From NCBI GenBank assembly GCA_964538665.1, contig CAZIEB010000001.1, positions 7,031 through 71,030 on the forward strand: a DNA stretch of 64,000 nucleotides, written 5' to 3'. Under the pieces are notes generated by a model that saw only the letters and a list, made by a program, of their open reading frames with translations, searched no databases and was not told the origin of the DNA. Shown here one piece after another: positions 15,492 to 39,779 of the stretch. Origin of the DNA: an uncultured Candidatus Saccharibacteria bacterium (GTDB lineage Bacteria > Patescibacteriota > Saccharimonadia > Saccharimonadales > Saccharimonadaceae). Each line of letters starts with the position of its first letter. Position 1 is the first letter of the stretch. The position numbers were made by a program, and so were the translations under genes.

Positions 15492-15509
15492 CAATTACTA
15501 CATACGAAT

Positions 15510-16055
15510 ATGGCATTACAAATCAAAAGACGACGCAGCACCTACGATGCACGAAGAAATATGATACATGTTGCGCGTCGTAAAAACCGTTGGAAACGGA
15601 CACTTATCAGTATCATCGTGGTGGTGCTGCTACTGCTGCTTGCAGGTGCTCTCTATACCTGGTATATGGGCAAGTATTCACCAGAGCCAGTAGCACAGCA
15701 AATCGAAGAACCGGTCGAGAGGCCAAAAACAGCCGATACGCCGGTCGACGAAACCGCAAAAGTAGGGGTTGCAGAGCAAATATTTACCCGTACAGTCACG
15801 CAGGGCGACAATGCATCGTTACAAATAAAAACAAATCGACTGGCGGCCTGTTCGATCACGGTAGAGTATGATAAGCGACTAAGCGAAGATACTGGGCTTG
15901 TCCCGAAAAAGGCTGATGAGTACGGCGTGGTATCGTGGGCATGGACTGTAGAGGTCGACCGTCCTGTGGGACGTTGGCCAGTGACTATCACTTGTGCTAA
16001 CGAAAAAAATTCAGCAGTACATATAGTGTATTTAAACATAGAGAAAAAGGAATAA
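15510..16055 (+). CDS. Membrane-anchored hypothetical protein
   Basis: Basic N-terminus, one TM (LISIIVVVLLLLLAGALY), and a roughly 110-aa beta-rich ectodomain with 2 Cys. Confidence 0.5.
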   Translation: MALQIKRRRSTYDARRNMIHVARRKNRWKRTLISIIVVVLLLLLAGALYTWYMGKYSPEPVAQQIEEPVERPKTADTPVDETAKVGVAEQIFTRTVTQGDNASLQIKTNRLAACSITVEYDKRLSEDTGLVPKKADEYGVVSWAWTVEVDRPVGRWPVTITCANEKNSAVHIVYLNIEKKE

Positions 16056-16056
16056 G

Positions 16057-16893
16057 CTAGTCAAGATTGGCTATATATGCTGACCATACGTTGTCATTTA
16101 TCTTTACGGGAGACTTAATCAGTATCATATTCCCAGATTTTTTTAGTATTACGGACTGTGGGCCGTCCGCGGAATTACTCACAAAAAAGACAGTTCCGTC
16201 ATTTGCTTCTGCTCGTGAAACAGCTCCAAATTCCTGTGCGATTTCCTTGATGTCTTCATCTGGGTTGTTCGTGAAACCACTTGGCAACGGTTGTTGACTC
16301 ACGGTAATCTTGACACTTCCTATAGTATCCACAAAAGCAAAAACAGGATTACGATCAGGCGGGCTAACCCTCGTCCATCCTCCGAGTGTTTCAATTGATT
16401 TTCCACTTGGGAGTAGTGTGGAAAATTCGGGAGTTTTGCCCCCTACATCTATCGCCTCCGTCGGCTGGTTGCCAGGCTGTTCATCTGATGATGATTCTTG
16501 ACGTGCATTTATACTGTATAGACCAACACCGACTGCTACTAGTGCAACGAGAAAGACGCTCACTATACGCTTCTTCGACAACATTCTTTTGAGTGTGTTT
16601 TTGGTTGATAAGGCAGGTTTGTGTGGTAGCTTAAGTTGTCGGCCTTTGGGCCACTTGGCTATTACTTTCGGCACATTAACAATGAGGTATTTCGTTGAGC
16701 GCAATACTGAGGTGAGTATCTTATGGACCGTTCCTCCTGCAAGTTCTCGAATCGGGGTCTTATCGTGAACATCTATGAGAGGTTCCTCAAGATTGGTCTC
16801 TGGCGTGAGTATTCCTTGTGATGAACCATAAGACCCCGTATTTTTATTTGGAGTGACAGGCGGATTTTTTAAATGGTTGCGGTATTTCATCAT
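16057..16893 (-). CDS. Hypothetical single-pass membrane protein (last gene of the giant-protein operon)
   Basis: ATGA overlap with the stop of the 2078-aa gene. Central TM IVSVFLVALVAVGVGLY and a C-terminal extracytoplasmic domain. Confidence 0.55.
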   Translation of the reverse strand: MMKYRNHLKNPPVTPNKNTGSYGSSQGILTPETNLEEPLIDVHDKTPIRELAGGTVHKILTSVLRSTKYLIVNVPKVIAKWPKGRQLKLPHKPALSTKNTLKRMLSKKRIVSVFLVALVAVGVGLYSINARQESSSDEQPGNQPTEAIDVGGKTPEFSTLLPSGKSIETLGGWTRVSPPDRNPVFAFVDTIGSVKITVSQQPLPSGFTNNPDEDIKEIAQEFGAVSRAEANDGTVFFVSNSADGPQSVILKKSGNMILIKSPVKINDNVWSAYIANLD

Positions 16894-19800
16894 TGTGAAT
16901 AATAAGGTGTATCAATAGGTTGCTGAAGCCCCCCTGTAAACGTACGTCCGTGCATAAGTCGTTTTGAAGGATCGCCGGTGAACTGAAGTGATAAGCTGTC
17001 TATGGTAGGTCCGCGAGTAACATCATCAGGATACCCATATGCCTGCGAACTATCAACCGATACGTAAAAGAAGAAATATCGTGCACAATTGGTATTTGTG
17101 CCGGCAGCGTTTTTCGGAGTATATACTCCAGGTACACCGAGTGATACATTGCCAAAGAAAGTTTCCTGCCCCCACGTCGTCATGGGGGGCGAAGTACAAT
17201 AGGTCGTTGGGTTGGTCATCGAACGATACCGTAACTGCCAGTTAGCGCCTACAGAATTGTCTATGCCGTTCATGAGCCAAGCGTTTGGATAGACATCAGT
17301 GTCTGTGTCCATCAGCATAGAATAGCGAGCAATTTGCGGCTGTGATATTAATGCGCTTTGTTGGATTTCATTTGCACCTGTATAGGTGACTATGGGTAGC
17401 GGTGGACGAATCGCAATTGTGAAACCAATACCGCTTTGACTGTTCGACATTGTGAAATTGCCTGGTGTTTCTGAAACAGTAGTTAATGTACGCCGCGCGG
17501 AACTTACGCTTGCGCCATTTGTTCCTGAGTCGACATTGGCATGAGTGCCATTTGAGTAATCTGTCGGGTAGCTACTTACCCCTGTGTACATGCTACCAGC
17601 CACGTAAGCGATCCATAAGCTGTCAGTTGCACCCCATGGAGCGGAAACCGTTGGCATTGCTCGTGTTGCGCTCGTGGAGCCAGTGCCAACCGCTACCTCA
17701 ATACCATCATCGATATCGCCATACCATTGATCTTTGGGTATTCGGTATACTTGCGCGGCGGCGCGTTGCGCATTCGATGTAGCGAAGTTGACAGTGGTCC
17801 CGTCACTCCCTGTCGCTACTTTGGCCCAGACTGAGCCGTAGCCGCCGTTGGTTGCACTATTCTGGCTAATCAGCTCGGTCCAGCCACCAGCACCGTCTGG
17901 ATCGGTGACGCTCGGATTACCATTACTATCGTAGCTAAACAGCATGAGCAGAAGGTCTCCTGCTACTGTCGTGCTCGGCATACTCACGTTGTGAGTAGTG
18001 CTATCACTGGTAAAACCAGTACCAGAATTAGTAGTCGTTATGGACGAAACGCTCGGCGTAGTTGTAGTAGAACAACCGCCTCCCACTATGTACGCTTTGC
18101 CGTCATAATACAAAGCGCCAGCACCATACCGATCACCAGCATATTTTTGGTTTGCTTCATACCAAGCTCCTATACCAGTCGGATTATTGCCGCTCGCGAT
18201 TGTTGTATTTGCACTTATAGGCGCTACAAATGTAGTTGGTGTGCAGGTAACGTTACTACTTCTTCCACCCACCAAATACATGTATCCGTTTGATCCGAAT
18301 GCCTCGGCAAAGGCAACAGGGCGAGGGAGGCTCGTTGAGTATGTCCAGCTACCAACTGAGCCATCGGTGCTGTTGATCTGGGCGTACTGGCTGTCCGAGT
18401 GATAGTACGTTCCGTCATAACCTCCAAATAAGTAGAGGTTGTTTCCGTAGGCAGTTACGGCCAATCCACTACGCCCAACGTTGATATTGGGGCTACTCGT
18501 TGTCCATGAAGATGAAATATTGCCACCACTGTTGAGTTGTGGACTCACGTATACATTCGAACATATACCTGAGCTACATGAACCAGCAGTTCCTTCGCCG
18601 CCGACGATATATAGTCGATTATTCCAGCTCGCTGCACCAAACTTTGATCGAGCGTTGGGCAATCCATTTGTTGCAGTAGCCCAACTGGACACATCGCCGG
18701 AGCCATTTGGCGTTGCATAATAAATTTCAGCACGTCGGTCATTGGCGTTATCGCTATGACCGCCGACGTAATACAATGACCCTCCTGCACTTAATAATTT
18801 ACCCCATGCCCGATCAGCGGGTAGCCCAGCTGATGTGTTTGACCAGCTTCCTATATTGCCATTCACGTCGATTTGCGCATAAGATACAGTGTTTACTGCG
18901 TTGGTACAATCTCGTGTACTGACACAACCGCCAGCGACGTATATGCGACCATTGTGTACGACATTGCCGGCCCCAATGCGGTTTGGGTTTGTGGTATAAC
19001 TATTTGCTGCCCCGCTGTACTCTGCAGGTGCTCCACTGACGTTGTTATAGATTTGGAATGTTTGTATTGTATCTGTTCTTGTTGTACAACCGCCAGGACT
19101 ATCACCAATTGTGCATCCGCCAATTACATATGCGAATGAATTTGATACCGTGACGGTCAGTCCCCATCGTTGATTGATTTTGACATCCGACATCGTAAAT
19201 CCTTCTGATACACTACCAAGACTACCGTCACTCACATTAACTTTAATGAATTCAATATCTGCTACCACTCCTGACCCGCCAGCTTCAAAGCCTCCAGCTA
19301 CGTATATATAACCGTTGTACCCGAACGCAGCAGTACGGCGTCGCCCAACCTGCATTTGGTTTGGTGATTCTATCCATCCCGAGCCGCTTACTGCTACAAC
19401 GTTGTTATTGTTATCAAATTTAGCGTAGCGAACAGTTTTCATATCAACGAGGCCAGGAGCAACACCCCCGATGAGATATATATAATTTGCATAGACAGTT
19501 CCGCTCATAATACCTATACCGGTACCGGTCGCACCCGGCACCGTACCAACCTGTTGTTGATTGGAAGTCGAGCAGCTGCTCACAGCGCCATCAAGGGCAA
19601 TATTGCACTTAAATACATTTTGCGTATATGCGGTGCAACCAGCAGAACTCGAGGATGTGCATCCTCCGAAAATATAGAGATTCCCTGGCGTAGAGTCGAT
19701 TGCAGCGGGATTTGCCCGCGCGTAGGCATATGAGTATGAAACATTCGTGGCGCCAATGCCTGTTAACGATTGGGATGTCCAGCCACTTGCACTACCGTCA

Positions 19801-22800
19801 CTATACAGATCGGCGCGGATGATAGAATTAGTGTTCGAAGATCCACTTAATCCGCCGACTAGGTAGACCTGTCCTCGAAATGTAACTGGGCTGGCTGCAG
19901 CAAGACCAGTAGGGAGTACATTTGAGTTAAAGCACCAAGCACCTCCCTGGTATGAGCCCCCCGGGCACGTTGTCGGGCGAATAATTGAACCATCGGTGTC
20001 AATCGCGGAGTATACTACGTCATTACTCGTTGAGCTGCAGGAATTGTTGGTACAGCCTCCGACGATATAAAGATGTCCATTATATATGAAGCTACTAGTC
20101 AGCATATTTCCAACATAAGTTGTTCCTGGTAGATTGCATTGCTCAGGGTCAGATCCCCAACATGGGGTTGATGAATTATTAGCATACGTTTCACCTACGG
20201 TACTGGCATCTCCGTCGCGGTTGATTTTACCGTATCTAATAGCGTCCAGAGTTGCTTCTCCACAATCGCCAGTAGACCCGTTTTGTGACACGCATCCACC
20301 TACTCTATATAGGTGTCCGCGCCAAGATATCAGATTACCCCCGAGCCGTTCATCGAGTGCTGTACCGACAGTATTCCACGTATCCAGGCTGCCATCTGCA
20401 TTTATACTTGCCAGCTGGATGCTACTATGTACCCCTGTACAATATCCGCTTCCATTAACCGCGCTACAGCCGCTACTGATATATAAATAAGCTCCCCATA
20501 CTGCCGCCATAGTACCGCCGCCGGTAAACCTACCAGAAGGCAGAGGGGTAGTCGATATCCAGTTGTTGAGAGATCCATCTGCATTGATTTTGTTGTAATA
20601 GCTAGCAGTTTGCGGTGCTCCGCCGACGCTGTTCGAACCTCCCAGCACATATATTCGATCGTTGTAGATTGCTGCACCGTGTCCATATACATTTGATGGC
20701 AGGGCAGTAGATGATGCCCAAGAACCAAGTGTACCGGTTGGACGAATATCTGCTATTTGAACTGAAGAAACTGGCCCAGACGAAGACCGACCACCTATTA
20801 GGTAGAGCCTATTATTGTATGCTGTTGCGGTAAAATCCGATCGGACTGATGTGAGGTTACTATCTTGATACCAATAAACCCAAGTATTTGGGTCGGTGTT
20901 TGTTGGGTGCCAGAGACGGGGTTCACCGTTTGCGCCGATTTTGGCGATGTAAACTGTGCTTTGCAACGTACCGCTCGCATTTGCGCCACCGATTGCATAC
21001 AAATAGCCGTTGTACGCAACGAGGGAGAAATTAGAACGCTCGGACGGAAGTGCATAATCGCTCGACGAGCACCATCCCGCACACGTTCCTGAGCCAGGAT
21101 TCGCACTTTGTACAGCACCAGTTGTCGTGTTAAATTCTGCCCAACTGACATTTTTCGTGATTTCGGTGCCTGATCCATAAGAAATAAAAATTGCTCCATT
21201 TGCGCCAAAAGAGCCACCTTGGCCACTTGCACCACCTCCACCACCATCACCAGCTCCACTTCGTATCGGGTCGGAGGCATTTCCTGGACTAGTGCCACTT
21301 CCCGCACTATTAGTGACGCTAGAGAGGCCTCCTGCAGTGTAGCTTGATCCACCACCACCACCACCACCTGATGAGTTGGTCGTACTAGATGTCGCACCTC
21401 CACCTCCACCACCGTAGTAGCCGGCTCCACCACCACCACCAGCCGCTCGTGTGGCGTTGACGTTTCCAAGGCCGCCATTTCCTCCGCCTATCAATCCGCC
21501 AAAACCACCACCACCATCTGCACCGGACGAGGCACTTCGACCATCGGCACCCAGACCACCCGTTAATGATGATCCTGACGTACCGGAGTTGTTACCACCT
21601 TGTCCACCACTACCGCCACTGGACTGGGTGCCAGGCCCACCACCGTCACCGTTGTTATTGTATTCAGTATCACCAATAACACCTGTCGTGCCACCACCAG
21701 CTCCACCATCTGCACCAGTTCGGGCAGAGCGTGCACCACCTCCTCCTCCACCACCAGCAGCAATTACAAGGGGCGTACTGCCTCGATAAATACTTGAAAT
21801 TCCACCACCACCACCACCACTACCTGTAGTTGTAGTATTATTTCCACCACCTCCACCACCACCGACATAGATGTCTAATGGTTCACCCGGAGTTACTGGG
21901 ATAACCGCTGTGACATAACCTCCACCTCCACCGTTTCCGCCTGATGCGCCTGATCCACCACCACCTCCACCTCCTCCGGGTCCCCAAACCTTTACGGTGA
22001 TGCTGGTGACACCTGCGGGAACAACAAACGTCTCTGCTCCCTGGGTGTTAAATGCTTGCCCTTGAAACGATCGTCCACCAGCTGAGTAGATATATCCTCC
22101 GGCTGCGGCAACCCCGTTTGCAGACGTTGCTACTGGTAGCGATTGTGTATTCTCCCACTGGTCAAAACGTGCACCGGTGGTAGGTGCTTTTTGGATAAGT
22201 TTTTCATCAACATTGAAGTCAATATTGGTTTCATTGTTCCCGGCCATGAACTCACGCGCACTGGTAACATAAATACTTGGGTCAATCGATAGAGGGAATG
22301 ACGCTTTGCTCAGCCCCGTTGTCACTATCGATAGTTTATTACCGTTCAACTCAAATTTTGAGCGGGCGTACTCTGATTCTTGGCCATTAGACTCAACGAC
22401 TATCGGGCTTGGTATCTTGAACATGAGATCTGTTTTTTGAGCATTCTGACGCATTTTTTCCAGAAGTTTGGCATCTTCATCTGAAGATGCGACAATATTA
22501 CTACTTGTAACGGTGTTGCCATATATTCCTATCCCGCCATCTTTTTCTAACCGAGCTTCTAGTGTATTTCCAATATCTAATACATAGGTAAATGTGGCGG
22601 TGTCTGATTTTGAACTATTCAACAGAATATCTTCTTTTATGCCCGTACTCTGGATTGTATATACCGCCCATCCATCAGAGTCTTTTAGTGGATATACTAT
22701 ACGATTTTCATCCTTTCGCCCGATAAGGTACGCATCAGATGCTTTTAAGGTTAGGTCTACGTTATATACTTTGTCGGATAAGGTAAAACCATCACTAAGC

Positions 22801-23126
22801 TTTGTATTAAACGAGGCTTTAATACCTTGTTGCATTCCATTGACGTCATCAGGAGATTCGTAAGCAAAGGTTTTTGCCTGTTCGTCATATTTGAGTTTAT
22901 TAGCAACCGTTTGGTTAGTTGCAGGTATTAGTGAGGCCGCATTGCCCAGGTCATAAGGTGCTGGCTTGATTAATGGAGTTAAAAAATAGGCTAGATCAGC
23001 AATAATAAGTATCAGTACCAGTAATATACTGTTGATTCTTCGTAAGCGAGTACTAAAAAAAGTGGCACGAGCTGAACTGAGTATACTTTTAATAGTCGGC
23101 AAAACGCGTCGAAAGAAATCTCTCAT
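16890..23126 (-). CDS. Giant (2078 aa) membrane-anchored surface protein: glycine-rich domain, about 17 Kelch-like blades and C-terminal beta-rich domains
   Basis: Uninterrupted 6.2-kb ORF. N-terminal TM ILLVLILIIADLAYFL. Gly-rich block begins FVVPAGVTSITVKVWGPGGGGGGGG. Repeated motifs of the type YNGYLYAIGG, YNNRLYLIGG, YNDRIYVLGG, WNNRLYIVGG and so on. Confidence 0.85.
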   Translation of the reverse strand: MRDFFRRVLPTIKSILSSARATFFSTRLRRINSILLVLILIIADLAYFLTPLIKPAPYDLGNAASLIPATNQTVANKLKYDEQAKTFAYESPDDVNGMQQGIKASFNTKLSDGFTLSDKVYNVDLTLKASDAYLIGRKDENRIVYPLKDSDGWAVYTIQSTGIKEDILLNSSKSDTATFTYVLDIGNTLEARLEKDGGIGIYGNTVTSSNIVASSDEDAKLLEKMRQNAQKTDLMFKIPSPIVVESNGQESEYARSKFELNGNKLSIVTTGLSKASFPLSIDPSIYVTSAREFMAGNNETNIDFNVDEKLIQKAPTTGARFDQWENTQSLPVATSANGVAAAGGYIYSAGGRSFQGQAFNTQGAETFVVPAGVTSITVKVWGPGGGGGGGGSGASGGNGGGGGYVTAVIPVTPGEPLDIYVGGGGGGGNNTTTTGSGGGGGGISSIYRGSTPLVIAAGGGGGGGARSARTGADGGAGGGTTGVIGDTEYNNNGDGGGPGTQSSGGSGGQGGNNSGTSGSSLTGGLGADGRSASSGADGGGGFGGLIGGGNGGLGNVNATRAAGGGGGAGYYGGGGGGATSSTTNSSGGGGGGGSSYTAGGLSSVTNSAGSGTSPGNASDPIRSGAGDGGGGGASGQGGSFGANGAIFISYGSGTEITKNVSWAEFNTTTGAVQSANPGSGTCAGWCSSSDYALPSERSNFSLVAYNGYLYAIGGANASGTLQSTVYIAKIGANGEPRLWHPTNTDPNTWVYWYQDSNLTSVRSDFTATAYNNRLYLIGGRSSSGPVSSVQIADIRPTGTLGSWASSTALPSNVYGHGAAIYNDRIYVLGGSNSVGGAPQTASYYNKINADGSLNNWISTTPLPSGRFTGGGTMAAVWGAYLYISSGCSAVNGSGYCTGVHSSIQLASINADGSLDTWNTVGTALDERLGGNLISWRGHLYRVGGCVSQNGSTGDCGEATLDAIRYGKINRDGDASTVGETYANNSSTPCWGSDPEQCNLPGTTYVGNMLTSSFIYNGHLYIVGGCTNNSCSSTSNDVVYSAIDTDGSIIRPTTCPGGSYQGGAWCFNSNVLPTGLAAASPVTFRGQVYLVGGLSGSSNTNSIIRADLYSDGSASGWTSQSLTGIGATNVSYSYAYARANPAAIDSTPGNLYIFGGCTSSSSAGCTAYTQNVFKCNIALDGAVSSCSTSNQQQVGTVPGATGTGIGIMSGTVYANYIYLIGGVAPGLVDMKTVRYAKFDNNNNVVAVSGSGWIESPNQMQVGRRRTAAFGYNGYIYVAGGFEAGGSGVVADIEFIKVNVSDGSLGSVSEGFTMSDVKINQRWGLTVTVSNSFAYVIGGCTIGDSPGGCTTRTDTIQTFQIYNNVSGAPAEYSGAANSYTTNPNRIGAGNVVHNGRIYVAGGCVSTRDCTNAVNTVSYAQIDVNGNIGSWSNTSAGLPADRAWGKLLSAGGSLYYVGGHSDNANDRRAEIYYATPNGSGDVSSWATATNGLPNARSKFGAASWNNRLYIVGGEGTAGSCSSGICSNVYVSPQLNSGGNISSSWTTSSPNINVGRSGLAVTAYGNNLYLFGGYDGTYYHSDSQYAQINSTDGSVGSWTYSTSLPRPVAFAEAFGSNGYMYLVGGRSSNVTCTPTTFVAPISANTTIASGNNPTGIGAWYEANQKYAGDRYGAGALYYDGKAYIVGGGCSTTTTPSVSSITTTNSGTGFTSDSTTHNVSMPSTTVAGDLLLMLFSYDSNGNPSVTDPDGAGGWTELISQNSATNGGYGSVWAKVATGSDGTTVNFATSNAQRAAAQVYRIPKDQWYGDIDDGIEVAVGTGSTSATRAMPTVSAPWGATDSLWIAYVAGSMYTGVSSYPTDYSNGTHANVDSGTNGASVSSARRTLTTVSETPGNFTMSNSQSGIGFTIAIRPPLPIVTYTGANEIQQSALISQPQIARYSMLMDTDTDVYPNAWLMNGIDNSVGANWQLRYRSMTNPTTYCTSPPMTTWGQETFFGNVSLGVPGVYTPKNAAGTNTNCARYFFFYVSVDSSQAYGYPDDVTRGPTIDSLSLQFTGDPSKRLMHGRTFTGGLQQPIDTPYYSQ
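18200..21050 (-). repeat. Array of about 17 Kelch-like beta-propeller blades (coding; approximate bounds)
   Basis: Recurrent (Y/W/F)-x-(G/N)-x-(L/I/V)-Y-(L/I/V/A)-(I/V/F)-G-G every 50-60 residues, often followed by ...DGS...W. Confidence 0.7.
21150..22010 (-). repeat. Glycine-rich low-complexity coding region with (CCA)n/(GGT)n microsatellites (approximate bounds)
   Basis: The plus strand shows runs such as ccaccaccaccaccaccacc at 21349-21368 and 21802-21820. The translation is poly-Gly interspersed with S/N/T/A. Confidence 0.8.
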
Positions 23127-23135
23127 GCTTTCATT

Positions 23136-26100
23136 TTACCTGTTACTGAAGATAAAGTTCAAGTTACCTATATATGCGTTCGAGTTTTGGCTTGCAGTAA
23201 CATTAATTCGAAACACAATACTGTTGCCTGGAGCAAAGCCACAGGTTGAAGGATCAGCCGTTCCGGTGGCTAAACCTGTTTGCCACGACGCCACGGCACC
23301 TGAAGATACCTGTACGAGCGGACCGCAGGTTGTTAGGCCTGAGGCTTGATCATTTTTATACACCTGGTATTCCACGGTTGAGTTAGCACTGTCTGTCAGC
23401 CCCATAATGGAAGTGGTACCTGATTCGAAGGTCTTAAAGGTTGCTGGTAATTGATAGGTAACATACACGCTATATGTTTGAGCGCTTGGTTGAGGGGATG
23501 ACCAACGATAAAAATTGTAGGTTTCATTTGTACCGCATACGTCAGGTTGGCCAGATGTGCCGTCATTTATATTTAACGTATCTGAACAAAGATCCGAGAC
23601 CATTGTTCCTATACCGGTGCCATGTAGCACCGCGTTTGTAAATTCTGGTGCAATAGTTACGACGGTATTTGGACTTGAGCCACAGGCTCCCCAACCATCT
23701 GCCTCATAGCACTGTAACTTACCAAGCGTCGTATCATAATACATCGAGCCTAATAGTGCATCGTTGTTTATAGCAATCGGAGCAGATGCTGCTTTGTCTA
23801 GTGTGAGCAGTGTAGTAGGGCCACCATTCTCTCCACCCCCGATTTGTACGTTCGGAGCGGTGTTGGTGGTTAAGGTCATCGTGAATGCATCGACATTGAA
23901 CGTACGGGCTGCCGAAGCTTCTCCAACAAAATATACATGGGGATTAGTTGCAACCGTGGCATCTGTTTGTATAAAACAAGTTACTTTCGTCCACTGAGAT
24001 GTTGATATTGATCTGGTGTTGTAGTCGACGCAGTCAATATAGTTGCCTCCCGCCGTCGTACTGCCATCTCGAGAATAGCGGATCTTAAAGTCATTGAATG
24101 TGCCTGATGCTACCTTAGCGTAGGCGGTGATACGATACAGCGTGCTAGGCAGCGGGTTCAAAGATAGTTTATTACGAATACCAGCGTTTGCCGCACCTGC
24201 AGAAATTGAAACTCTGGCGCTATCACTTGCATCTTCACCATCGGTAGTACTACGAGTGACAGAGCCTGTCCCTAACCCTGCGTAGAGCCAGTTGGTTGCG
24301 AAGTTATCACCATCTAAGACGCTACCGTCCGTCGCGTAATTAAAATCTGCGGCTATCGTAATACTGAGATTATCAATAAAGAATGTACGAGCTGTGCCTG
24401 CAGACGCTTGTCGTATCATCAATGAGTTATTTGCAGTAATTCCACCTGAAGGTGCTGTGAATGAACAATTTATCTTTGTCCATATGCTCGTTATAGCTGC
24501 CTTAGCAGTTGCGCATTGGGCATTTGCACTTGTTCCGTCAGCTGAATAGTAGACTTCCATATCGGTAAACGTGCCTGATGCCAAACGAGTCGTGAATGAC
24601 ACATTGTACATCATGTTAGGGGATAACTGCGCTTTTAAGCGGTTCGCTACGCCACTATTGATAGAAGTAGATGTAGCAACCGATACCGATCCTTGACCTG
24701 TTGCGATAAAGTTACCAGGGGTCGTGTATCGAGTTACCGATGCACCTGATAAAGCCGACCATGTATTAGCTGGGAACGTGGTTGATGAAGTCCCCGCCGT
24801 TTCTGCGCCGCCGTTTGAAACATACTCCGTAACATTACTATTGACAGAGAGCAAGCCGGCTGCGGAGGAGCTTTGTACGCTCAATAAAGTCCCGTTAACC
24901 GGATCGATAGAACTGTCACGGATAGTCAGACCGTTGGTTGCAGAGGTTTTACTAACGACTAATTCGGCCCCACCAGCACTCTGCAACGTGTTGTCGTAGG
25001 CCGCTTGTAATGTCGTAGAGCTAGAAGCGCCTGATACGGTCCATGCCGATCCATTCCAGACCATCGTGGCGCTACTGTTTTTGCGCATCGCAACAAGATT
25101 TCCTTGTCCACCGCCATTGATTGACAGCTGGAAGTCCTTCGTGGCGTTTGATGCAGTGATATAGACAATTCGTCCTGCTGTAGTGATAGTCGGGTTTGGC
25201 ATAAACGCTGTTTGACCATCATTGGTAAAGCCTACAATTACTGAACCGTTGTTGTTGACCGAGCTTTGTTGAATAGTACAGTTGCTTGTAGTTGTGGTCT
25301 CGGCGCCCCCCGGGAAACAACTCGCATCATTACCAATGGTCTGATAGGCAGCAGTTCCCAATATGACAAGTCCGTTTGATACATTACCTGAGCCTCCAGA
25401 AAGTGTTAGATTACCACCATATTGAGCGCTACCCCCTGCGTTACCACCTTGTACGCTCACATTACCGCCGTTGCCGGTACCATTGCCTGATGCGCCTTGA
25501 ATACTAAGGGCACTACCTTGAGTGTCTGCGCTCGTTTGCGAGGCAGCTTGTAGCGTTGTAGGACTGCTAGCAACTCCGAGCGTTATTTGTGTGGCGCTGA
25601 GGACTAATGAAGCGCTCCCACTTGAGTTGCCTATTGTAACGCCGGTTGCATTTGTTAATCCTATACTAAGGTTTGCACCAGTAGCCGTGTCAATAACTGG
25701 TGTGAGCAAGCCGCTATCAACTCGTGCAGTGCCGCCAATCCAAAAGTTCGCCGCGGTTTGGACGCTTGCGTTTTGATTTTGGATGAAGTCTCCAGCTGTT
25801 TTTCCGCCTAGTTGTAGCGCATTCATCGCGTAAGGCACAGCAGACAATCGTTTCATCGGGACCATTTCACCATCGCCGCCACAGCTACTAAACGGCGTAC
25901 AGCTGACATTGGTATTCCCGATATTCATGCTGAGCCAAAGGGTGTCTTGGTTCCAGTCAATACTGCTGCCAAATGCAGTGACCGAACCAAGTTCGACGGA
26001 CATAAATCCATTGCGCACTAACACGCCCTGAGAGGCGGAATTTATATGATCTTCGGTCCATAGGAGGGTGCCGCCTGGGTTGCCAACGGCGGTACCGGTG

Positions 26101-26315
26101 CCATCTTGGTATATCTTAAATTGGACATTGTAATAACCGTCTGGAACAGTAGCACCAGACGCAGTAAATAGCCGCCCTTGAAAATTGATCGTTTGATTTA
26201 TTCCAGGAGCAGCAGATGATGTCGTAGACCATACGCCACTTAGAGCAACACTACTCATAACGAGCAGTACTACGATAGCAGAGAATAGACGCCGTGGTGA
26301 CACGCCCGAGAACAT
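23136..26315 (-). CDS. Secreted 1059-aa surface protein: tail-fibre-like N-terminal module, Gly/Ser/Thr-rich beta region and two CBM4/9-like jelly-roll modules
   Basis: Signal peptide ...VALSGVWSTTSSAAPG. INFQGRLFTASGATVPDGYYNVQFKIYQDG...LLWTE...NGFMSVELG resembles the N-termini of tail-fibre-domain proteins. Two roughly 150-aa modules end FFIDNLSITIA and FNVDAFTMTL. Confidence 0.75.
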   Translation of the reverse strand: MFSGVSPRRLFSAIVVLLVMSSVALSGVWSTTSSAAPGINQTINFQGRLFTASGATVPDGYYNVQFKIYQDGTGTAVGNPGGTLLWTEDHINSASQGVLVRNGFMSVELGSVTAFGSSIDWNQDTLWLSMNIGNTNVSCTPFSSCGGDGEMVPMKRLSAVPYAMNALQLGGKTAGDFIQNQNASVQTAANFWIGGTARVDSGLLTPVIDTATGANLSIGLTNATGVTIGNSSGSASLVLSATQITLGVASSPTTLQAASQTSADTQGSALSIQGASGNGTGNGGNVSVQGGNAGGSAQYGGNLTLSGGSGNVSNGLVILGTAAYQTIGNDASCFPGGAETTTTSNCTIQQSSVNNNGSVIVGFTNDGQTAFMPNPTITTAGRIVYITASNATKDFQLSINGGGQGNLVAMRKNSSATMVWNGSAWTVSGASSSTTLQAAYDNTLQSAGGAELVVSKTSATNGLTIRDSSIDPVNGTLLSVQSSSAAGLLSVNSNVTEYVSNGGAETAGTSSTTFPANTWSALSGASVTRYTTPGNFIATGQGSVSVATSTSINSGVANRLKAQLSPNMMYNVSFTTRLASGTFTDMEVYYSADGTSANAQCATAKAAITSIWTKINCSFTAPSGGITANNSLMIRQASAGTARTFFIDNLSITIAADFNYATDGSVLDGDNFATNWLYAGLGTGSVTRSTTDGEDASDSARVSISAGAANAGIRNKLSLNPLPSTLYRITAYAKVASGTFNDFKIRYSRDGSTTAGGNYIDCVDYNTRSISTSQWTKVTCFIQTDATVATNPHVYFVGEASAARTFNVDAFTMTLTTNTAPNVQIGGGENGGPTTLLTLDKAASAPIAINNDALLGSMYYDTTLGKLQCYEADGWGACGSSPNTVVTIAPEFTNAVLHGTGIGTMVSDLCSDTLNINDGTSGQPDVCGTNETYNFYRWSSPQPSAQTYSVYVTYQLPATFKTFESGTTSIMGLTDSANSTVEYQVYKNDQASGLTTCGPLVQVSSGAVASWQTGLATGTADPSTCGFAPGNSIVFRINVTASQNSNAYIGNLNFIFSNR

Positions 26316-26485: not shown

Positions 26486-27445
26486 TTAGGTGACGAGTTG
26501 CCCGCGAACTCGGAGTATGTGTTTTTCGCGTTTTTCACCAAGCCAAAAACTTATCACCGCTGTGATAATCGCCGCATAGAGTGGCCATATGACGAGTAGG
26601 ATATGTCGCTGTGTCGTGGTGCTCTCAGCGACCGCAGCATCTGGTTGGCCATTGACGATGGCTGCGACCGTCATGAACGCGACTCGTCCATCAGCATCAC
26701 TCGCTTGGATAGTTATCTGGTATATGCCAGGTTTTTTATACGTGTGCGGTACCGAAAATCCAATATTATCACCGCGTGAGACGACAGAGTTTTCTGAGTC
26801 TCCCCACTGTACATTGACGGCATACGGTGGACGGCCGCCGATGAGATCAATCCGTAGAAGCATTTCTTGATCAGGAAACATGCCTCGATATACTGCGTCG
26901 GTATTGATAAGGAGTTGTGCTGCGCCGAAATCAAACGATGCGATAGGCCCGGCTTGCGTTGGAAGTGCGTCATAAAAGACGGTGACGATGTTTGAGTCTG
27001 GGCCTGGTTGATTGAGCGCATCATAGACGCGCGCGATGAGCCTATTCTCGCCGATAAGTAAGTCTATCTGCACTGAGTATGTACCGGTGCTACTACACGG
27101 AGTCGAGCCGGCAAAAATGTCATTTTTGAATATTTCAACTAGAGTATTTGGTGGACACGTACCCGTGACCTCTATCGGGGTTTCGATAAATCGCTGCCCA
27201 GTCGTCGGCGTGACGATAGTTGCGCCCGTCGTCGGTGGTTTTCCCGGCACAACTCCGGTGAGACCGACAGAGCCTGATTCTGGCCCATCGTATGGCGTCG
27301 CCGCACGGGTGACAGAATTGATAGTAAACATGACTAATACCACACCTATAACTGTAAGGATGATGCCTAGCATCCGGTAGGGTATCTGCTTTTGAGGTGT
27401 GTGTGTGTTTGTATGGCGTGGATGCAACGATTTGCGAGCCATCAT
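26486..27445 (-). CDS. Membrane protein with Ig-like and PKD-like domains
   Basis: N-terminal TM, then an Ig-like region. PKD-like PYAVNVQWGDSENS...HTYKKPGIYQITIQASDADG, then a C-terminal TM. Confidence 0.6.
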   Translation of the reverse strand: MMARKSLHPRHTNTHTPQKQIPYRMLGIILTVIGVVLVMFTINSVTRAATPYDGPESGSVGLTGVVPGKPPTTGATIVTPTTGQRFIETPIEVTGTCPPNTLVEIFKNDIFAGSTPCSSTGTYSVQIDLLIGENRLIARVYDALNQPGPDSNIVTVFYDALPTQAGPIASFDFGAAQLLINTDAVYRGMFPDQEMLLRIDLIGGRPPYAVNVQWGDSENSVVSRGDNIGFSVPHTYKKPGIYQITIQASDADGRVAFMTVAAIVNGQPDAAVAESTTTQRHILLVIWPLYAAIITAVISFWLGEKREKHILRVRGQLVT

Positions 27446-27473: not shown

Positions 27474-28472
27474 TTAGCGACGACGCCGGCCACGGCTCTG
27501 GCTGAGCAAGCGATCATTGTATCGCTTGATAGCAATTCTCAGGATAAAGAAGAGTGCGACGAGGCCGAGGAGTATGCCGGCAATTAGCTTATACGGGATG
27601 ACCCAAAAACTTAGCTGTGAGGTCATTGTTTGACGGTTTTCGGCTGAGCCATAGGTAATTTCGAGATCGGCTGTGTAGCGACCAAATAACATTCGATTGC
27701 CAATTACGGTTTCATCGAGAGGTTGCTCGAATTTACGTGTGCTTCCAGGAAGAACATTACGGTTTTCGAGGTTGACATTGAGATTGGCTATCTTTTGGCC
27801 AAACATGTCTTTGATGCTGATTTGACCTCGTGGCTGTTCGTGTACATTACCCTCATTCTTGAGTCGCTCATAGAACATGATTGGAGCTGATTCGAATACC
27901 CACGAGCGGTTCTGGTCTTTTTCGACATAGAATTCCTCCACACTCATTGCTTCTTTGGCGTCTCCGTTGACCCTCAAAAGTACCAAAGTACCAAGACTTG
28001 CAGAGAGCGAAACACCAGTGCCGGATAGCTCAGGCGCTTCGGCAGTAAAGCGAATTACGCCGAAGTAACCGCCCGGTGCAGCGTTCGCCGGGATAGCGAT
28101 ATTAACAGTCAATTCTTCAATCTGACGAGGTTCTAGGGTGATTTCAGGTAGTGGCGAAATCCAGCTTTTGATAGAGTAGGGACTCTCTTCACCTTCCTCA
28201 ACCAAGATCTTAGGCGTGCCATCTTCTCCGGCAGCGACAAAGTCATTGATTTCATTTCGGACCAACAATCGCACCGGACTAATGTCACGTAGGCTAATTC
28301 GAGCTTCTACAGTCTCTCCAGGATTACCGCGTATGTCGAGTACTGGCGGTGCAATTTCAAGTGCTTGTCCGTTTCCTTGCTGAGGAGCTGATTGGCTCTG
28401 TGCAGAGACTGCAACGCTAGCGAGAGCCAGGAGTGCGATGCTACTAATCAAAATTCCGAGTATCTGCTTCAT
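27474..28472 (-). CDS. DUF916/DUF3324-like two-domain cell-surface protein with a C-terminal TM anchor
   Basis: Signal peptide, then two Ig-like-sized beta domains (…PGETVEARISLRD…; …IPANAAPGGYFGVIRF…), a C-terminal TM and an RGRRRR tail. The architecture resembles CscA-type proteins of WxL loci. It sits 3 nt downstream of the preceding paralog. Confidence 0.45.
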   Translation of the reverse strand: MKQILGILISSIALLALASVAVSAQSQSAPQQGNGQALEIAPPVLDIRGNPGETVEARISLRDISPVRLLVRNEINDFVAAGEDGTPKILVEEGEESPYSIKSWISPLPEITLEPRQIEELTVNIAIPANAAPGGYFGVIRFTAEAPELSGTGVSLSASLGTLVLLRVNGDAKEAMSVEEFYVEKDQNRSWVFESAPIMFYERLKNEGNVHEQPRGQISIKDMFGQKIANLNVNLENRNVLPGSTRKFEQPLDETVIGNRMLFGRYTADLEITYGSAENRQTMTSQLSFWVIPYKLIAGILLGLVALFFILRIAIKRYNDRLLSQSRGRRRR

Positions 28473-28475
28473 ATG

Positions 28476-29606
28476 CTAAAACAAGGCGGTACAGATGTAC
28501 GTTAGCGTGGTGGTATACGTACCAGGGGGCTGAACACCAGACACATTGACGATATATGAGGCGGTATAAATCTGTGAGTTAGTAGGTCCAGGGCTTGTGC
28601 CAACAGTACCAAGTGCGCCACCGGAGCTGGCGCTGTTGGCGACGGTCTCACCACTAACAAATTTGAACTGATCAACGGTCTGATAGCCTGTATTGGCTTG
28701 TGCTTTGAGGTCGGTACCATTTGACGCGGGCGACACCTCGGCACCAAAGGCCGGCGTTGAAGTCGCAACAGTGTTTGCACGAAGATTCATGCCGAACTCG
28801 CTTGTTCCGGGCGAGCCAGCGGCTTGTGTGGCCTTTGCGGGTATAGTGTTGCTTCCACTAGTCAGTGCGGGCCCGTTGACCGAAATTGTATAGCCTCTCT
28901 CAGCATTGGTGCTCGCAGCCATCTGAGATGTGGCAACGGCAGTATCTGTTGGCGAGAATAGTCGGTCGAACTCTATCGCTCCGGGCGTACTACTCGTACA
29001 GTTTGCGGCAACGGTCTCTCCTGTACAAAATATCAATGATTCTGGCATAACTCCACTGAGCACAATTTGCTCAGCGGTGCTAGCGGCGACGGTACCGTTG
29101 TCTACTGCACCTGTTGCACCATCTGTGCCTGTATAGGTGGTAATACGTACATAAAATGACTCATTGACAGTAGTTGGGTTTGTGACACCGAGTAGTTGGT
29201 AGGACAGTGCTGCTCCTGCTGTCACGCTGGCAGCGGTACGAGTGATGTACGGAGATCCGTTTGTGGTGTTGTTGAGCGTAAATCCAGTTGCACCAGACTG
29301 TGTACCCATAGTCGCGCTCGTTGTGACGAGGCCAGTCGGTGTCGTACATGTGCCTCCAGCTTCAGTACAGTATTCAAACCGTATCGATCCGATATTGCCG
29401 TTACCGACATTTGGGACAGTAAATTCATAGAAGTGGTTGACGTTACCACCGGCGAGTGAGCCGCCGTCGCCGCCCGCACCCTGCTGTAGCGTCAGTGAAC
29501 GAAGTGTTATTTGAGCAGCGGTCGCATTTCGCGACAGCATCAATGGGCTTGCTACCATCAAGAATAGCAGCAAAGCTGATAGGAACACCCTTCCACTTCG
29601 TCTCAT
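28476..29606 (-). CDS. Secreted beta-rich two-domain surface protein, paralog A2 (WxL-like C-terminal domain with Y in place of W)
   Basis: Signal peptide ...SRNATAAQ. Highly similar to 29861..31009. C-terminal domain motifs RGYTISVNGPALTSGSNTI and GTYTTTLTYICTALF. Confidence 0.7.
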   Translation of the reverse strand: MRRSGRVFLSALLLFLMVASPLMLSRNATAAQITLRSLTLQQGAGGDGGSLAGGNVNHFYEFTVPNVGNGNIGSIRFEYCTEAGGTCTTPTGLVTTSATMGTQSGATGFTLNNTTNGSPYITRTAASVTAGAALSYQLLGVTNPTTVNESFYVRITTYTGTDGATGAVDNGTVAASTAEQIVLSGVMPESLIFCTGETVAANCTSSTPGAIEFDRLFSPTDTAVATSQMAASTNAERGYTISVNGPALTSGSNTIPAKATQAAGSPGTSEFGMNLRANTVATSTPAFGAEVSPASNGTDLKAQANTGYQTVDQFKFVSGETVANSASSGGALGTVGTSPGPTNSQIYTASYIVNVSGVQPPGTYTTTLTYICTALF

Positions 29607-29613
29607 ACCTGTG

Positions 29614-29643
29614 ATTGTAGCATGAGCTTTTTAGGGGCGTCAA
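29614..29643 (-). promoter_or_regulatory. Promoter of paralog A2 (leaderless-type)
   Basis: Minus strand: TTGACG, 18 nt, TACAAT (within GCTCATGCTACAAT), then 7 nt to ATG 29606. Confidence 0.55.
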
Positions 29644-29860
29644 CAAATAATCCTCGCAGAAAGTACCATTTGCGCGATCAGTGAGTGTATCTGCGGTAAT
29701 TGATATAGCTTTAGAAGTCTAGTGTGATGCGGTCATGCTCAACTAAAAAGTCCTCCTCTCGGGTGTGTAGTATGGTTCGCAACACCGCCAGATACTGTCA
29801 GTGAAGACAGTATGTATGGCAGGTGTGTGGTGGATAACTTTCTATACATAGTAGAGTGAA

Positions 29861-31009
29861 TCAGAATGTTGCGGTACAGATGTATGTCAGTGTCGAGGTG
29901 TAGGTACCGGCAGGTTGGCTACCTGGGACATTTGCGATGTAGGCGACAGTAAATATCTGTGCGTCACTTGGACCGGCTGCGGTATTATCACTCGCGGCTA
30001 CAGTGTCACCCGACGTAAACTTATATTGCTCAGGTGTATCATAGCCAGTTGATGCCTGTCCGCGGTAGTTTGTGCCGTTCGGCGCAGGTGCTACTTCAAG
30101 GCCTACTGTAGGAGTAGTGATGTTTGCTTTGAGGTTGAGACCAAACTGTGCGGTACCAGGAACTGATATGCCGGCGGTATTCATACCAGCGATAGTGTTA
30201 GATCCTGAGGTGAGGGTTGGTCCGTTGACCGTGATGGCATAGCCCGCCCCCGCGTTGGTACTTGCAGCCATTTGGGATTGTGATATCGCAGTTGCCGTTG
30301 GCGAAAACAGCTGGTTGAAAGCGATAGTACCATCAGTTGCCGTCGAACAGTCAGGGACAGTACTTGTCGCGATATCGAGGCCAATTGTTTCGCCTGTGCA
30401 GAAGACGAGCGATTCGGGCATGACTCCGCTAAGGATGATAGGTTCGGCAGTGCTTGCGGCTACCGTACCGTTATCTTGAGGAATACCAGTGGCGGTTGTG
30501 TTTGCGTAGGTTAATATACGTACGAAGAAAGTCTTATTGGTATCGGGAACAGTTGGGCCATAGACTGGGTTGGTGATGCCGAGCAATTGATACGAGACCG
30601 CGCCTGATGCTGCGGCAGCCGTGCGAGTAAGATAAGGAGCACCGTTTGTTGTGGCATTGAGAGTAAAACCAGTTGCACCAGATTGAGTTCCCATTGTGGC
30701 GCTGGTCGTTACAAGTCCTGTTGGAGTAACACACGTCCCTAACCCGACGTCAGCTGCTGTTTCACAGTATTCAAACTTTATTGAACCGACTGTATTCGCG
30801 GGTAGGGTAAAGTTGAATAGGTGGTTAACGACGCCTCCAGGCTCTGATCCGCCGTCAGTGGCACCTGCTTGAAGAGTCAGGCTACGATTCGTAATTTGCG
30901 CGGCCGAGACCGGTGTATTCAGGAAAAATGGGCTAGCCGCCACTAATAATGCAAGCGCAACAAGCGACAAGCGCGAAACGATACGGTGAAATGTTTGTGG
31001 TGTTTTCAT
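29861..31009 (-). CDS. Secreted beta-rich two-domain surface protein, paralog A1
   Basis: Signal peptide ...NTPVSAAQ. Shares a 24-aa identical block TPTGLVTTSATMGTQSGATGFTLN with A2. The C-terminus is GTYTSTLTYICTATF. Confidence 0.7.
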   Translation of the reverse strand: MKTPQTFHRIVSRLSLVALALLVAASPFFLNTPVSAAQITNRSLTLQAGATDGGSEPGGVVNHLFNFTLPANTVGSIKFEYCETAADVGLGTCVTPTGLVTTSATMGTQSGATGFTLNATTNGAPYLTRTAAAASGAVSYQLLGITNPVYGPTVPDTNKTFFVRILTYANTTATGIPQDNGTVAASTAEPIILSGVMPESLVFCTGETIGLDIATSTVPDCSTATDGTIAFNQLFSPTATAISQSQMAASTNAGAGYAITVNGPTLTSGSNTIAGMNTAGISVPGTAQFGLNLKANITTPTVGLEVAPAPNGTNYRGQASTGYDTPEQYKFTSGDTVAASDNTAAGPSDAQIFTVAYIANVPGSQPAGTYTSTLTYICTATF

Positions 31010-31047
31010 GTGGTGGTTGTGTTTATTTTTTGAGGTGCTTTAGCCAC

Positions 31048-31077
31048 ACTGTAGCATGAGCATTTTGGCCATGTCAA
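31048..31077 (-). promoter_or_regulatory. Promoter of paralog A1
   Basis: Minus strand: TTGACA, 18 nt, TACAGT (within GCTCATGCTACAGT). The leader is about 30 nt with no SD. Confidence 0.55.
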
Positions 31078-31115
31078 CAATAATATGTATGAAAACTGTG
31101 GATAAGTCGTACTAT

Positions 31116-31847
31116 TCAGTATGTACCGGTCACGATAAGTGTTTGGTTGCTGCTGTATATCCCTCCCGGGGTGAGCTGTGCAACGTTAGCTATGTAGCTG
31201 ATAGTGTAGGTCGTCTGTCCAGAATTTTTATCGGCATAAGCGATAGTCTCACCGCTGACGTAGCGAAATTCGTTTGGTGTAGCATAGTTTGGTGCAATCA
31301 AGCCAAAGCCAAAATCACCGTTATTGAGATTTGAACCGAAAGATACCGGGACAGTATTTGCCACGAGGTTGATACCAAACTGTTCGACGCCAACTTGCGG
31401 TGTGGTGGTCGCGGACATTGCATCAATTGTCGAATTACTATTTGTGAGCGATGACCCTACCAGTTGGACTACATAGCCATATGTCGTGTAGTTTGAAACA
31501 CGAAACGATGCGGTCGCGGTAAGGGTGCTTGTTGGGCTAAAGGTTCCGAAATTTGCTGCACTCGTCAAGACCTCGAATGATAGGGCTGGATCAGGTGACG
31601 TATTGGTACCTGAATCAAGTTGGAAGTTTGCGCTCTGGGAGTTTCCGATTGCGATGTCACCTGTCGCGCCACGTGCCTCAAAATTTGAAGAGCTAGACTG
31701 CAGCATCCCACCAGTGCCTATGACCCCTTCATCAAACCGGTAATTGGGTGACTGTAATGACTGCGCAAACAGAGGAATAGGGAAGAATAATGCCCCGATG
31801 ACAGCTATTACACTCAAAACAATGACAAAACTCCGTGCCATAAGCAT
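31116..31847 (-). CDS. Shorter paralog (C-terminal domain type) of the A1/A2 surface proteins
   Basis: Signal peptide ...PIPLFAQS. YGYVVQLVGSSLTNSNSTI, EQFGINLVANT and the C-terminus GGIYSSNQTLIVTGTY parallel A1/A2. The start could be ATG 31847, ATG 31841 or TTG 31877. Confidence 0.6.
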   Translation of the reverse strand: MLMARSFVIVLSVIAVIGALFFPIPLFAQSLQSPNYRFDEGVIGTGGMLQSSSSNFEARGATGDIAIGNSQSANFQLDSGTNTSPDPALSFEVLTSAANFGTFSPTSTLTATASFRVSNYTTYGYVVQLVGSSLTNSNSTIDAMSATTTPQVGVEQFGINLVANTVPVSFGSNLNNGDFGFGLIAPNYATPNEFRYVSGETIAYADKNSGQTTYTISYIANVAQLTPGGIYSSNQTLIVTGTY

Positions 31848-31933
31848 TATTGTCACGTGTTGGCCGTCATTTTGCAAGTTGCGGTATCAGTACATAAGCG
31901 GTATAGTTACTATGGATACAATAAGACAAACAT

Positions 31934-39633: not shown

Positions 39634-39779
39634 TATTTCTCCTTCTACGTGGTGTTACGTGGTGGTGAGTACTATGGTAGCGGTATCCCGTGCGTACAGA
39701 TATGGTGCACCACACATTGCAAATGTGACCTAGATTACATTTGACTCTTAACTTCTTTGGTAAAATTGACATTGTTGTT

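Follow-up and report, generated by a model that had tools for sequence, protein, structure and literature searches.

A giant Kelch-repeat protein with a nested glycine-rich domain in a conserved envelope operon of Saccharibacteria: a candidate binding arm of a cell-surface complex

Type IV pili aside, we are aware of little that explains how ultrasmall epibiotic bacteria recognise their hosts and stay attached to them. This question is raised by a 64,000-nucleotide stretch of an uncultured Candidatus Saccharibacteria bacterium (contig CAZIEB010000001.1, positions 7,031 to 71,030; hereafter the window), in which a single open reading frame (ORF) encodes a protein of 2078 aa, referred to below as the giant. 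What kind of protein is this, and what could it do on the cell surface? We found an intact membrane protein with 18 Kelch blades, a glycine-rich domain nested in the first of them, exchangeable modules at the blade loops and a nearly invariant C-terminus. We prefer to read it as part of a cell-surface complex, in which it would serve as a modular arm that binds a ligand or a host; our confidence in this reading is about even.

The ORF starts with ATG, encodes a product with a predicted mass of about 215 kDa and is coupled on both sides, as a preliminary description of the sequence had stated. Nine nucleotides separate its ATG (starting at 23126) from the stop codon of a 1059-aa gene (ending at 23136), and its TGA overlaps the ATG of a 278-aa ORF in the form of ATGA at 16890-16893. 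The trivial explanation of such a gene would be an artefact: the ORF could be a chimera or an assembly error, or its repeats might not be translated into a single protein. This possibility is negligible and effectively refuted. Collinear full-length homologues of 2065-2083 aa with 70-76% identity are present in independent assemblies, a protein identical to the giant occurs on a 95.7-kb contig, and full-length collinear homologues are found in hundreds of independent assemblies altogether, including contigs of 0.8-1.3 Mb; confident AlphaFold2 (AF2) models point the same way. Since the independent assemblies hold full-length collinear homologues, assembly error or frameshift, which the preliminary description had named among the things that would refute its claim, is unlikely, and nothing was found in favour of an artefact. 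The homologue search (threshold E <= 1e-3) returned more than 559 proteins; the best 120, which were analysed here, are all 1769-2207 aa long and each scored above 2200 bits. The locus represents chromosomal DNA of Saccharibacteria (TM7), with housekeeping genes in the surroundings (ATP synthase, PBP1, Mur ligase, aminoacyl-tRNA synthetase), and the closest homologues bear Candidatus Saccharibacteria or Saccharimonadota labels.

The only strongly hydrophobic helix of the giant spans about residues 31-53 (Table 1). As no obvious cleavage site was seen, we read this transmembrane (TM) helix as a signal anchor, and about 2020 residues are expected to reside outside the cell. The TM segment is the least conserved part of the protein (16% identity to homologues). 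It is followed by a membrane-proximal stalk, modelled as mainly beta-structured (residues 55-335) with predicted local distance difference test (pLDDT) values mostly of 75-94 for residues 55-320; hydropathy and the AF2 model thus agree with the single helix and beta-rich region of the preliminary description. The stalk gave no Pfam match and no PDB sequence match. The giant contains 26 cysteines which make up 13 close pairs, seven of them stapling the loop directly after the GG doublet of a blade. Paired cysteines had already been remarked upon in the blades, and such pairing fits an extracellular protein.

As for the repeats, we counted 18 blade motifs of the form hYhhGG, one ahead of the glycine-rich domain (GYIYSAGG, residues 344-351) and 17 behind it, at residues 709-1683. 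The earlier estimate of about 17 blades is therefore accurate for the array behind the glycine-rich domain and one short for the whole protein. When the whole giant was scanned against Pfam, Kelch models clearly exceeded their cutoffs (PF24681 with 108.2 bits, cutoff 50, E 4.7e-31; Kelch_1 with 94.2 bits, cutoff 20.1, E 3e-27; Kelch_6 and Kelch_4 likewise). Blade 1 is split: its strands A/B (GVAAAGG-YIYSAGG) precede the glycine-rich domain, and the C/D pattern (NVSWAEFN ... GWCSSSDYALP) comes directly after it. The AF2 model of residues 55-1010 reached a mean pLDDT of 83.9. In a Foldseek search of the propeller 1 model against PDB, the top 50 matches were all six-bladed Kelch structures (SAKe6 designs, KLHL12, KLHL3, Keap1), with E of about 1e-13 and target-normalised TM-scores of 0.7-0.79 over about 300 columns. 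Pfam, model and Foldseek together uphold the assignment of Kelch repeats, and the first six blades are modelled as a six-bladed propeller. As 12 further blade motifs were counted, the remaining blades can be inferred to form two more six-bladed propellers. We also considered a recent triplication of a six-blade unit and rejected it, for the blade-by-blade score matrix lacked a period-6 signal.

The giant shares the GG-doublet blade motif and the six-bladed fold with KLHL12, KLHL3, Keap1 and SAKe6. Unlike these proteins, it is predicted to be extracellular, disulfide-stapled and built of three propellers in tandem; its blades are longer (51-80 aa) and carry whole domains inside their B-C loops, and the BTB/BACK context of KLHL proteins and Keap1 is absent. 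The B-C loops of the Kelch domains in Keap1 and KLHL proteins lie on the ligand-binding face. Alternatively, the propellers could be catalytic, acting as a NanM-like sugar mutarotase or a galactose-oxidase-like oxidase, and such names do occur: two homologues carry the JGI name 'N-acetylneuraminic acid mutarotase', and some phage structural matches are named 'galactose oxidase'. However, these names reflect generic Kelch similarity, and we consider an enzyme very unlikely. Both by sequence and by fold, the solved structures that match best (KLHL, Keap1 or designed Kelch domains) have no catalytic function, neither NanM nor galactose oxidase appears among the 22 PDB sequence matches at E <= 1e-3 or the top 50 fold matches, and three propellers with inserted binding modules are unlike any known enzyme layout.

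The glycine-rich domain had been described as a segment of roughly 290 aa standing ahead of the propellers. Its existence and size were confirmed (about 300 aa, glycine content 30-48% over residues 353-655), and its position was not: the blade motif pattern and the strand order of the model agree in placing it inside the B-C loop of blade 1. When residues 344-665 were scanned alone, they matched Pfam Gly_rich_2 (PF21722) at 29.1 bits (cutoff 24.3), a match that was missed in the full-length scan. The Gly_rich_2 match is present in many giant homologues, and a glycine-rich domain in blade 1 is present in all family members. In the model, sandwich-like strands come first and are followed by about 150 residues without DSSP structure and yet with pLDDT near 90, the expected signature of a packed glycine lattice. 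Foldseek matches of this model in BFVD were phage proteins named 'glycine-rich domain-containing', 'virion structural protein', 'PE-PGRS' and 'receptor protein-tyrosine kinase' (22-29% identity, E 1e-13 to 1e-9). Across the 120 homologues, glycine positions are near invariant (mean entropy 0.52 bits), whereas non-glycine positions vary (1.60 bits) and contain indels.

A comparable organisation is known from the receptor-binding module of Pam3 gp24, TNF-like and glycine-rich, in which a conserved glycine stem bears a hypervariable distal tip and which its authors relate to S16 gp38 and the ALK ectodomain (PMC9608196). Like Pam3 gp24, S16 gp38 and ALK-LTK, the domain of the giant combines invariant glycine runs with variable tips, and, like the phage tail-fibre module, it is modelled as beta-sandwich strands followed by a putative glycine lattice of high pLDDT devoid of regular secondary structure. 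It differs in size, being much larger than the 125-aa domain of gp24, and in its location within a Kelch blade of a cellular membrane protein, where the gp24-type module occupies the tip of a trimeric fibre. The resemblance to tail-fibre-like and ALK-type domains proposed in the preliminary description thus holds for the phage side, through PF21722 and the phage fold matches. The ALK-type family PF12810 gave no match at E <= 10 on the glycine-rich segment, nor at E <= 0.1 on the whole giant. The link to ALK is therefore indirect, via the ALK-style naming of phage fold matches (the 'receptor protein-tyrosine kinase' label) and the Pam3-ALK similarity (PMC9608196). Against PDB sequences, the segment produced linker-like noise only.

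Further modules are found where the family alignment has its insertion hot spots, all of which lie directly after the GG doublet of a blade. In the common family form of about 1850 aa, the last blade (...AYVxGGGCGxTLTYASPVTQQT...) runs directly into a C-terminal domain of about 155 aa. The giant of the window belongs to about 15 of the 120 homologues which carry a beta-sandwich cassette in blade 18; this cassette comprises 233 residues (1686-1918), mostly modelled with confidence (pLDDT 85-97). In 14 other homologues the same site holds a second glycine-rich domain. Four relatives have PA14 in blade 14 (confirmed at 41.5 bits). In blade 15, eleven proteins carry a second glycine-rich domain and a single one PA14 (39.7 bits). 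Consequently, the last 430 aa or so, formerly described as further beta domains, are of two kinds, about 230 aa being a clade-specific insert in the last blade and only the final 155 aa or so a family-wide C-terminal domain. Identity to homologues rises from 47% in the stalk to 62-67% in the propellers and 71% in the C-terminal domain, which is the most conserved folded part of the giant (mean column identity 82% in a sample of 18 members). Although the final 20 residues share 87% identity family-wide, they are predicted to be disordered (pLDDT below 50), which suggests a docking peptide or a processing signal. Comparison of the C-terminal domain profile with PDB sequences and Pfam yielded sub-threshold TcdB noise only, and the model of insert plus C-terminal domain had no significant Foldseek match in PDB (best E 7.8e-3, generic jelly-rolls). 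The insert, like the C-terminal domain, thus resembled no Pfam family, PDB sequence or PDB fold.

The C-terminal domain was then used as a profile to scan one genome per GTDB species. It is encoded in at least 109 species-level genomes, from which 80 loci were kept. They are labelled as Saccharibacteria, Saccharimonadales or Saccharimonadia (Ca. Saccharimonas aalborgensis included) or generically (uncultured bacterium, Patescibacteria group). The only exception is a contig labelled 'Candidatus Pristimantibacillus' (Firmicutes; L058, DATJJV010000061.1), on which the giant has Saccharibacteria-type neighbours; this record most likely represents a binning error and not a horizontal transfer. Two metagenome-assembled genomes each gave two contigs encoding the C-terminal domain (L039/L040 and L038/L050), which may reflect mixed bins or a second copy of the giant in some genomes. 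In the proteome table of the oral S. epibionticum, no Kelch annotation is present (PMC10633639), and hence the family seems to belong to environmental lineages. Databases name its members 'hypothetical protein' or give a generic Kelch label. No NCBIfam model matched the giant, our literature search returned no paper linking Saccharibacteria with Kelch proteins, and searches on giant surface proteins and on S-layers or cryo-electron tomography yielded nothing on this family. The combination of domains, called unusual in the preliminary description, is unusual indeed outside Saccharibacteria; within them it represents a widespread conserved family. All of its domains are of known kinds. According to the literature searches, what is undescribed is the nesting of a phage-type glycine-rich module in blade 1 of a triple Kelch array, the insertion hot spots at the GG loops, the family-specific C-terminal domain and the tie to a Trp-less operon containing a WxLIP-type protein.

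This operon is a conserved envelope operon of eight genes, the giant among them. In two distant genomes, in which the giant is 56-60% identical, the gene order is kept: a divergent gene of about 350 aa, then 243, 380, 362, 337 and 324 aa, a protein of about 1180 aa with CBM_4_9, the giant and a protein of 215-284 aa. Synteny was counted over 82 related loci. All 63 loci with sufficient flanking sequence have the homologue of the 1059-aa gene immediately upstream of the giant; the homologue of the 278-aa gene lies downstream of it in 76 loci, and a convergent 181-aa gene comes next in 57.

The operon member that allows for comparison with a described system is the 332-aa protein, which holds about 260 aa of beta structure between its signal peptide and its TM helix. 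The protein of the window matches WxLIP_PGBD (DUF916, PF06030) only at E 0.073. Nevertheless, PF06030 is the family matched most often among 109 close homologues, by 96 of them. When 1.84 billion representatives were searched with a profile, 8735 relatives were obtained, and among 90 distant relatives (27-41% identity) 74 match PF06030 at E <= 0.01 (best 4e-11). From these matches in close and distant relatives, it can be concluded that the 332-aa protein is a divergent DUF916/WxLIP homologue. WxLIP proteins are defined by a signal peptide, DUF916 (PGBD), DUF3324 (HBD), a C-terminal TM helix and a length of 320-380 aa, and a WxL cluster requires two or more WxL-domain proteins bearing the dual Trp-x-Leu motif in a span of four genes (Hassan et al. 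2023, PMC10599100). In signal peptide, two beta domains, C-terminal TM helix and length, the layout of the 332-aa protein agrees with that of a WxLIP protein. Like the WxL/Csc clusters (E. faecium SwpA-LwpA-DufA, L. plantarum cscA-D), the operon of the giant includes a WxLIP-like member among secreted proteins. The small one-domain protein of such clusters, accompanied by larger paralogues with the same C-terminal domain, is echoed by the 253-aa protein and its 382- and 376-aa paralogues, and in both cases large proteins with putative binding domains are encoded alongside. The giant differs from the large WxL/Csc proteins in being anchored by its own N-terminal TM helix. By analogy, the operon plausibly works like a WxL/Csc system. 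A further parallel is the locus SEML1_0623-0628 of S. epibionticum ML1, which encodes DUF916-like and WxL-like proteins together with giant RCC1-propeller/FN3 proteins (Wang et al. 2023, PMC10633639, Tables S1/S2). By this structure-based annotation, it resembles the locus of the giant in joining DUF916-like and WxL-like proteins with giant beta-propeller surface proteins; in contrast, its propellers are seven-bladed RCC1 propellers with FN3, not Kelch, and no glycine-rich domain is reported.

Taken together, the giant would be a large, membrane-tethered, multivalent ligand-binding arm of a surface complex working like the WxL/Csc complexes of Gram-positive bacteria. Its propellers would provide rigid, disulfide-stapled platforms. 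The modules inserted in their loops (glycine-rich tips, PA14, beta-sandwich) would bind glycans or proteins on the surface of host or prey cells, or on polymers, and set specificity, and the C-terminal domain with its tail would dock to a conserved partner, either an operon product or a conserved wall component. Binding roles are known for modules that the family unites (phage-type glycine-rich tip, PA14, Kelch loop faces). We infer that host attachment is plausible.

Several observations weigh against the proposed binding arm. The ectodomain is strongly conserved across species (62-71% identity), most of all at the C-terminus. An adhesin engaged in an arms race would not usually be so conserved, and a structural role directed at the cell itself would explain the conservation just as well. 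Variability within the ectodomain is greatest in segments of the membrane-proximal stalk and not in the distal modules. As for the operon, the WxL Pfam model matched none of 99 homologues of the 253-aa protein, no Trp-x-Leu motif exists in the secreted paralogues, DUF3324 was never among the listed matches of the 332-aa protein and its relatives, and the C-terminal domain of the giant is unrelated to the small secreted paralogues in hhalign comparison. Moreover, all genes of SEML1_0623-0628 were non-essential in co-culture Tn-seq (PMC10633639). Since the WxL match and tryptophan are lacking and the C-terminal domain is unrelated, we do not classify this operon among the WxL clusters.

Some of these observations would be expected if the giant and its operon partners built or organised an outer layer of the cell itself, such as a coat resembling an S-layer, a scaffold spanning the wall or a spacer, without binding a host. 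High conservation, peaking at the C-terminal domain and tail, agrees with this explanation, and so do the single, syntenic, core-like chromosomal locus amid housekeeping genes, the WxLIP-type partner predicted to bind the cell's own peptidoglycan (PMC10599100) and the promoter-like sites that precede each of the two 380-aa paralogues separately, an arrangement to be expected of structural subunits made in abundance. On the other hand, lineage-specific swapping of PA14 and glycine-rich binding modules at the propeller loops would be hard to explain for a pure scaffold, the glycine-rich fold otherwise serves receptor binding (PMC9608196), and the missing Kelch annotation in the S. epibionticum proteome table indicates that the giant is not universally required in Saccharibacteria. 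We thus regard a purely structural role as unlikely, though worth serious attention.

Alternatively, the complex could bind and hold extracellular polysaccharides for uptake or degradation rather than cells. Capture of polysaccharides was reportedly first proposed for Csc clusters of lactobacilli (PMC1534035). CBM_4_9 in the coupled upstream protein, the PA14 cassettes of relatives and an alpha-amylase-family gene within the window are in line with this possibility. We nevertheless judge it quite improbable, as the operon contains neither a glycoside hydrolase nor a transporter, the WxLIP-type locus of S. epibionticum has propeller and FN3 proteins instead of enzymes, and cultivated Saccharibacteria live on host cells (PMC10633639).

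Returning to the binding arm, a more specific scenario is conceivable, which we put forward as a possibility and with considerable doubt. The giant might be the host-range determinant of environmental Saccharibacteria, a cellular 'receptor-binding protein' with a glycine-rich tip borrowed from phage tail fibres and exchangeable PA14, glycine-rich or beta-sandwich cassettes on the loop face of the three propellers. Swapping at the GG loops would retarget the epibiont to new hosts, and the C-terminal domain and tail would plug into a WxLIP-based envelope complex representing a deep branch, devoid of Trp, of the WxL system of Gram-positive bacteria. The envelope operon links Saccharibacteria to the DUF916/WxLIP proteins of Gram-positive bacteria and suggests that surface complexes of the WxLIP-based type predate the WxL motif and are more widely distributed than it. 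For environmental lineages of Saccharibacteria, which lack genetics, the giant family offers a concrete candidate for host or ligand recognition. It also provides testable handles: cassette type against host taxon, the variable tips of the glycine-rich domain and the invariant C-terminal docking tail.

Table 1. Segments of the giant and adjacent operon genes, with coordinates in the window
Feature	Position	Strand	Evidence
Whole ORF of the giant, 2078 aa and stop codon	16890..23126	-	ORF calling; full-length homologues
Single N-terminal TM helix, residues 31-53, after a basic cytoplasmic tail	22968..23036	-	hydropathy
Membrane-proximal beta-rich stalk domain(s) with one helix, residues 55-320	22167..22964	-	AF2 model
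Closure strand(s) and strands A/B of blade 1 (GVAAAGGYIYSAGG), residues 321-352	22071..22166	-	motif; model strands E284-288, E291-295
Glycine-rich domain (Gly_rich_2), predicted beta-sandwich and glycine lattice, nested in the B-C loop of blade 1, residues 353-655	21162..22070	-	Pfam, model, Foldseek
Strands C/D of blade 1 and blades 2-6, rest of modelled propeller 1 (six-bladed), residues 656-1006	20109..21161	-	model, Foldseek, motifs
Blades 7-12, putative six-bladed propeller 2, residues 1007-1382	18981..20108	-	Pfam, motifs
Blades 13-18, ending at the GG doublet of blade 18, putative six-bladed propeller 3, residues 1383-1685	18072..18980	-	Pfam, motifs
Clade-specific beta-sandwich cassette after the GG of blade 18, residues 1686-1918	17373..18071	-	alignment, AF2 model
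Family-wide C-terminal beta-sandwich domain, one Cys pair (1977/2014), residues 1919-2058	16953..17372	-	alignment, model
Near-invariant tail HGRTFTGGLQQPxDTPYY, residues 2059-2078	16893..16952	-	alignment, model
278-aa bitopic membrane protein, coupled	16057..16893	-	topology, synteny
1059-aa protein, coupled; signal peptide, fibre-like N-terminal motif, CBM_4_9 (E 4e-7)	23136..26315	-	Pfam, NCBIfam
319-aa protein, Ig-like and PKD domains, hydrophobic helices at both ends	26486..27445	-	Pfam, topology
332-aa protein, signal peptide, two beta domains, C-terminal TM helix, basic tail	27474..28472	-	topology, family Pfam matches
Three secreted paralogues (376, 382 and 253/241 aa) sharing a C-terminal beta domain	28476..31877	-	sequence comparison

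Among the neighbouring genes, the 1059-aa protein contains a motif, PMKRLSAVPYAMNALQLGGKTAGDF, which weakly matches Bdello_MAT_N (NF053851; 27.9 bits at residues 147-181, far under the cutoff of 60). Its layout is reminiscent of the mosaic adhesive trimer (MAT) fibres of Bdellovibrio, in that variable binding domains (CBM_4_9) come after the region that weakly matches the end of the N-terminal domain of MAT. The protein may act together with the giant as an adhesin in the form of a trimeric fibre.

The 253-aa protein corresponds approximately to a single domain, and the 382- and 376-aa paralogues both carry a copy of it at their C-termini (33% identity, E 4e-18); the latter two are 58% identical to each other. 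No tryptophan occurs in any of the three, and the family of the 253-aa protein had no match in PDB. Membership of these paralogues in the WxL family was considered and rejected, given that no Pfam match was obtained in 99 homologues and that both a PDB match and tryptophan are missing. The same applies to a WxL-like anchor shared between the 253-aa protein and either the C-terminal domain of the giant or the 1059-aa protein (hhalign probability 0.2 or less). The two best sigma-70-like matches (10/12, extended TG) are located at 29614-29643 and 31048-31077 on the minus strand, upstream of the 376- and 382-aa paralogues, and hint at separate strong promoters for these two genes; overall, promoter and terminator scans of the region were not above chance.

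Divergently from the operon, a 334-aa protein is encoded at 31934-32938 (+); its N-terminal TM helix is accompanied by a repetitive beta-helix region reminiscent of bactofilins. Its match to PF04519 (E 1.3e-4) is below the cutoff, and it occupies this position in the two distant genomes as well. On the other side of the giant, four genes occupy positions 12377-16055 (+), encoding a 269-aa secreted CBM_2/DUF11-like protein, a 390-aa protein with Peptidase_S26 (SipW-like), a 386-aa DUF5305 protein (PF17231, E 3.2e-22) and a 181-aa TM protein. This set resembles the TasA/SipW-type sets for fibre processing. Within 10 kb of the giant, the DUF5305 gene was present in 11 of the 82 loci, the S26 gene in 8 and the 269-aa gene in 6. 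Finally, a sensor histidine kinase with a CHASE domain (E 1.9e-49) is encoded at 39741-41561 (+), an extracellular-sensing kinase in a reduced genome.

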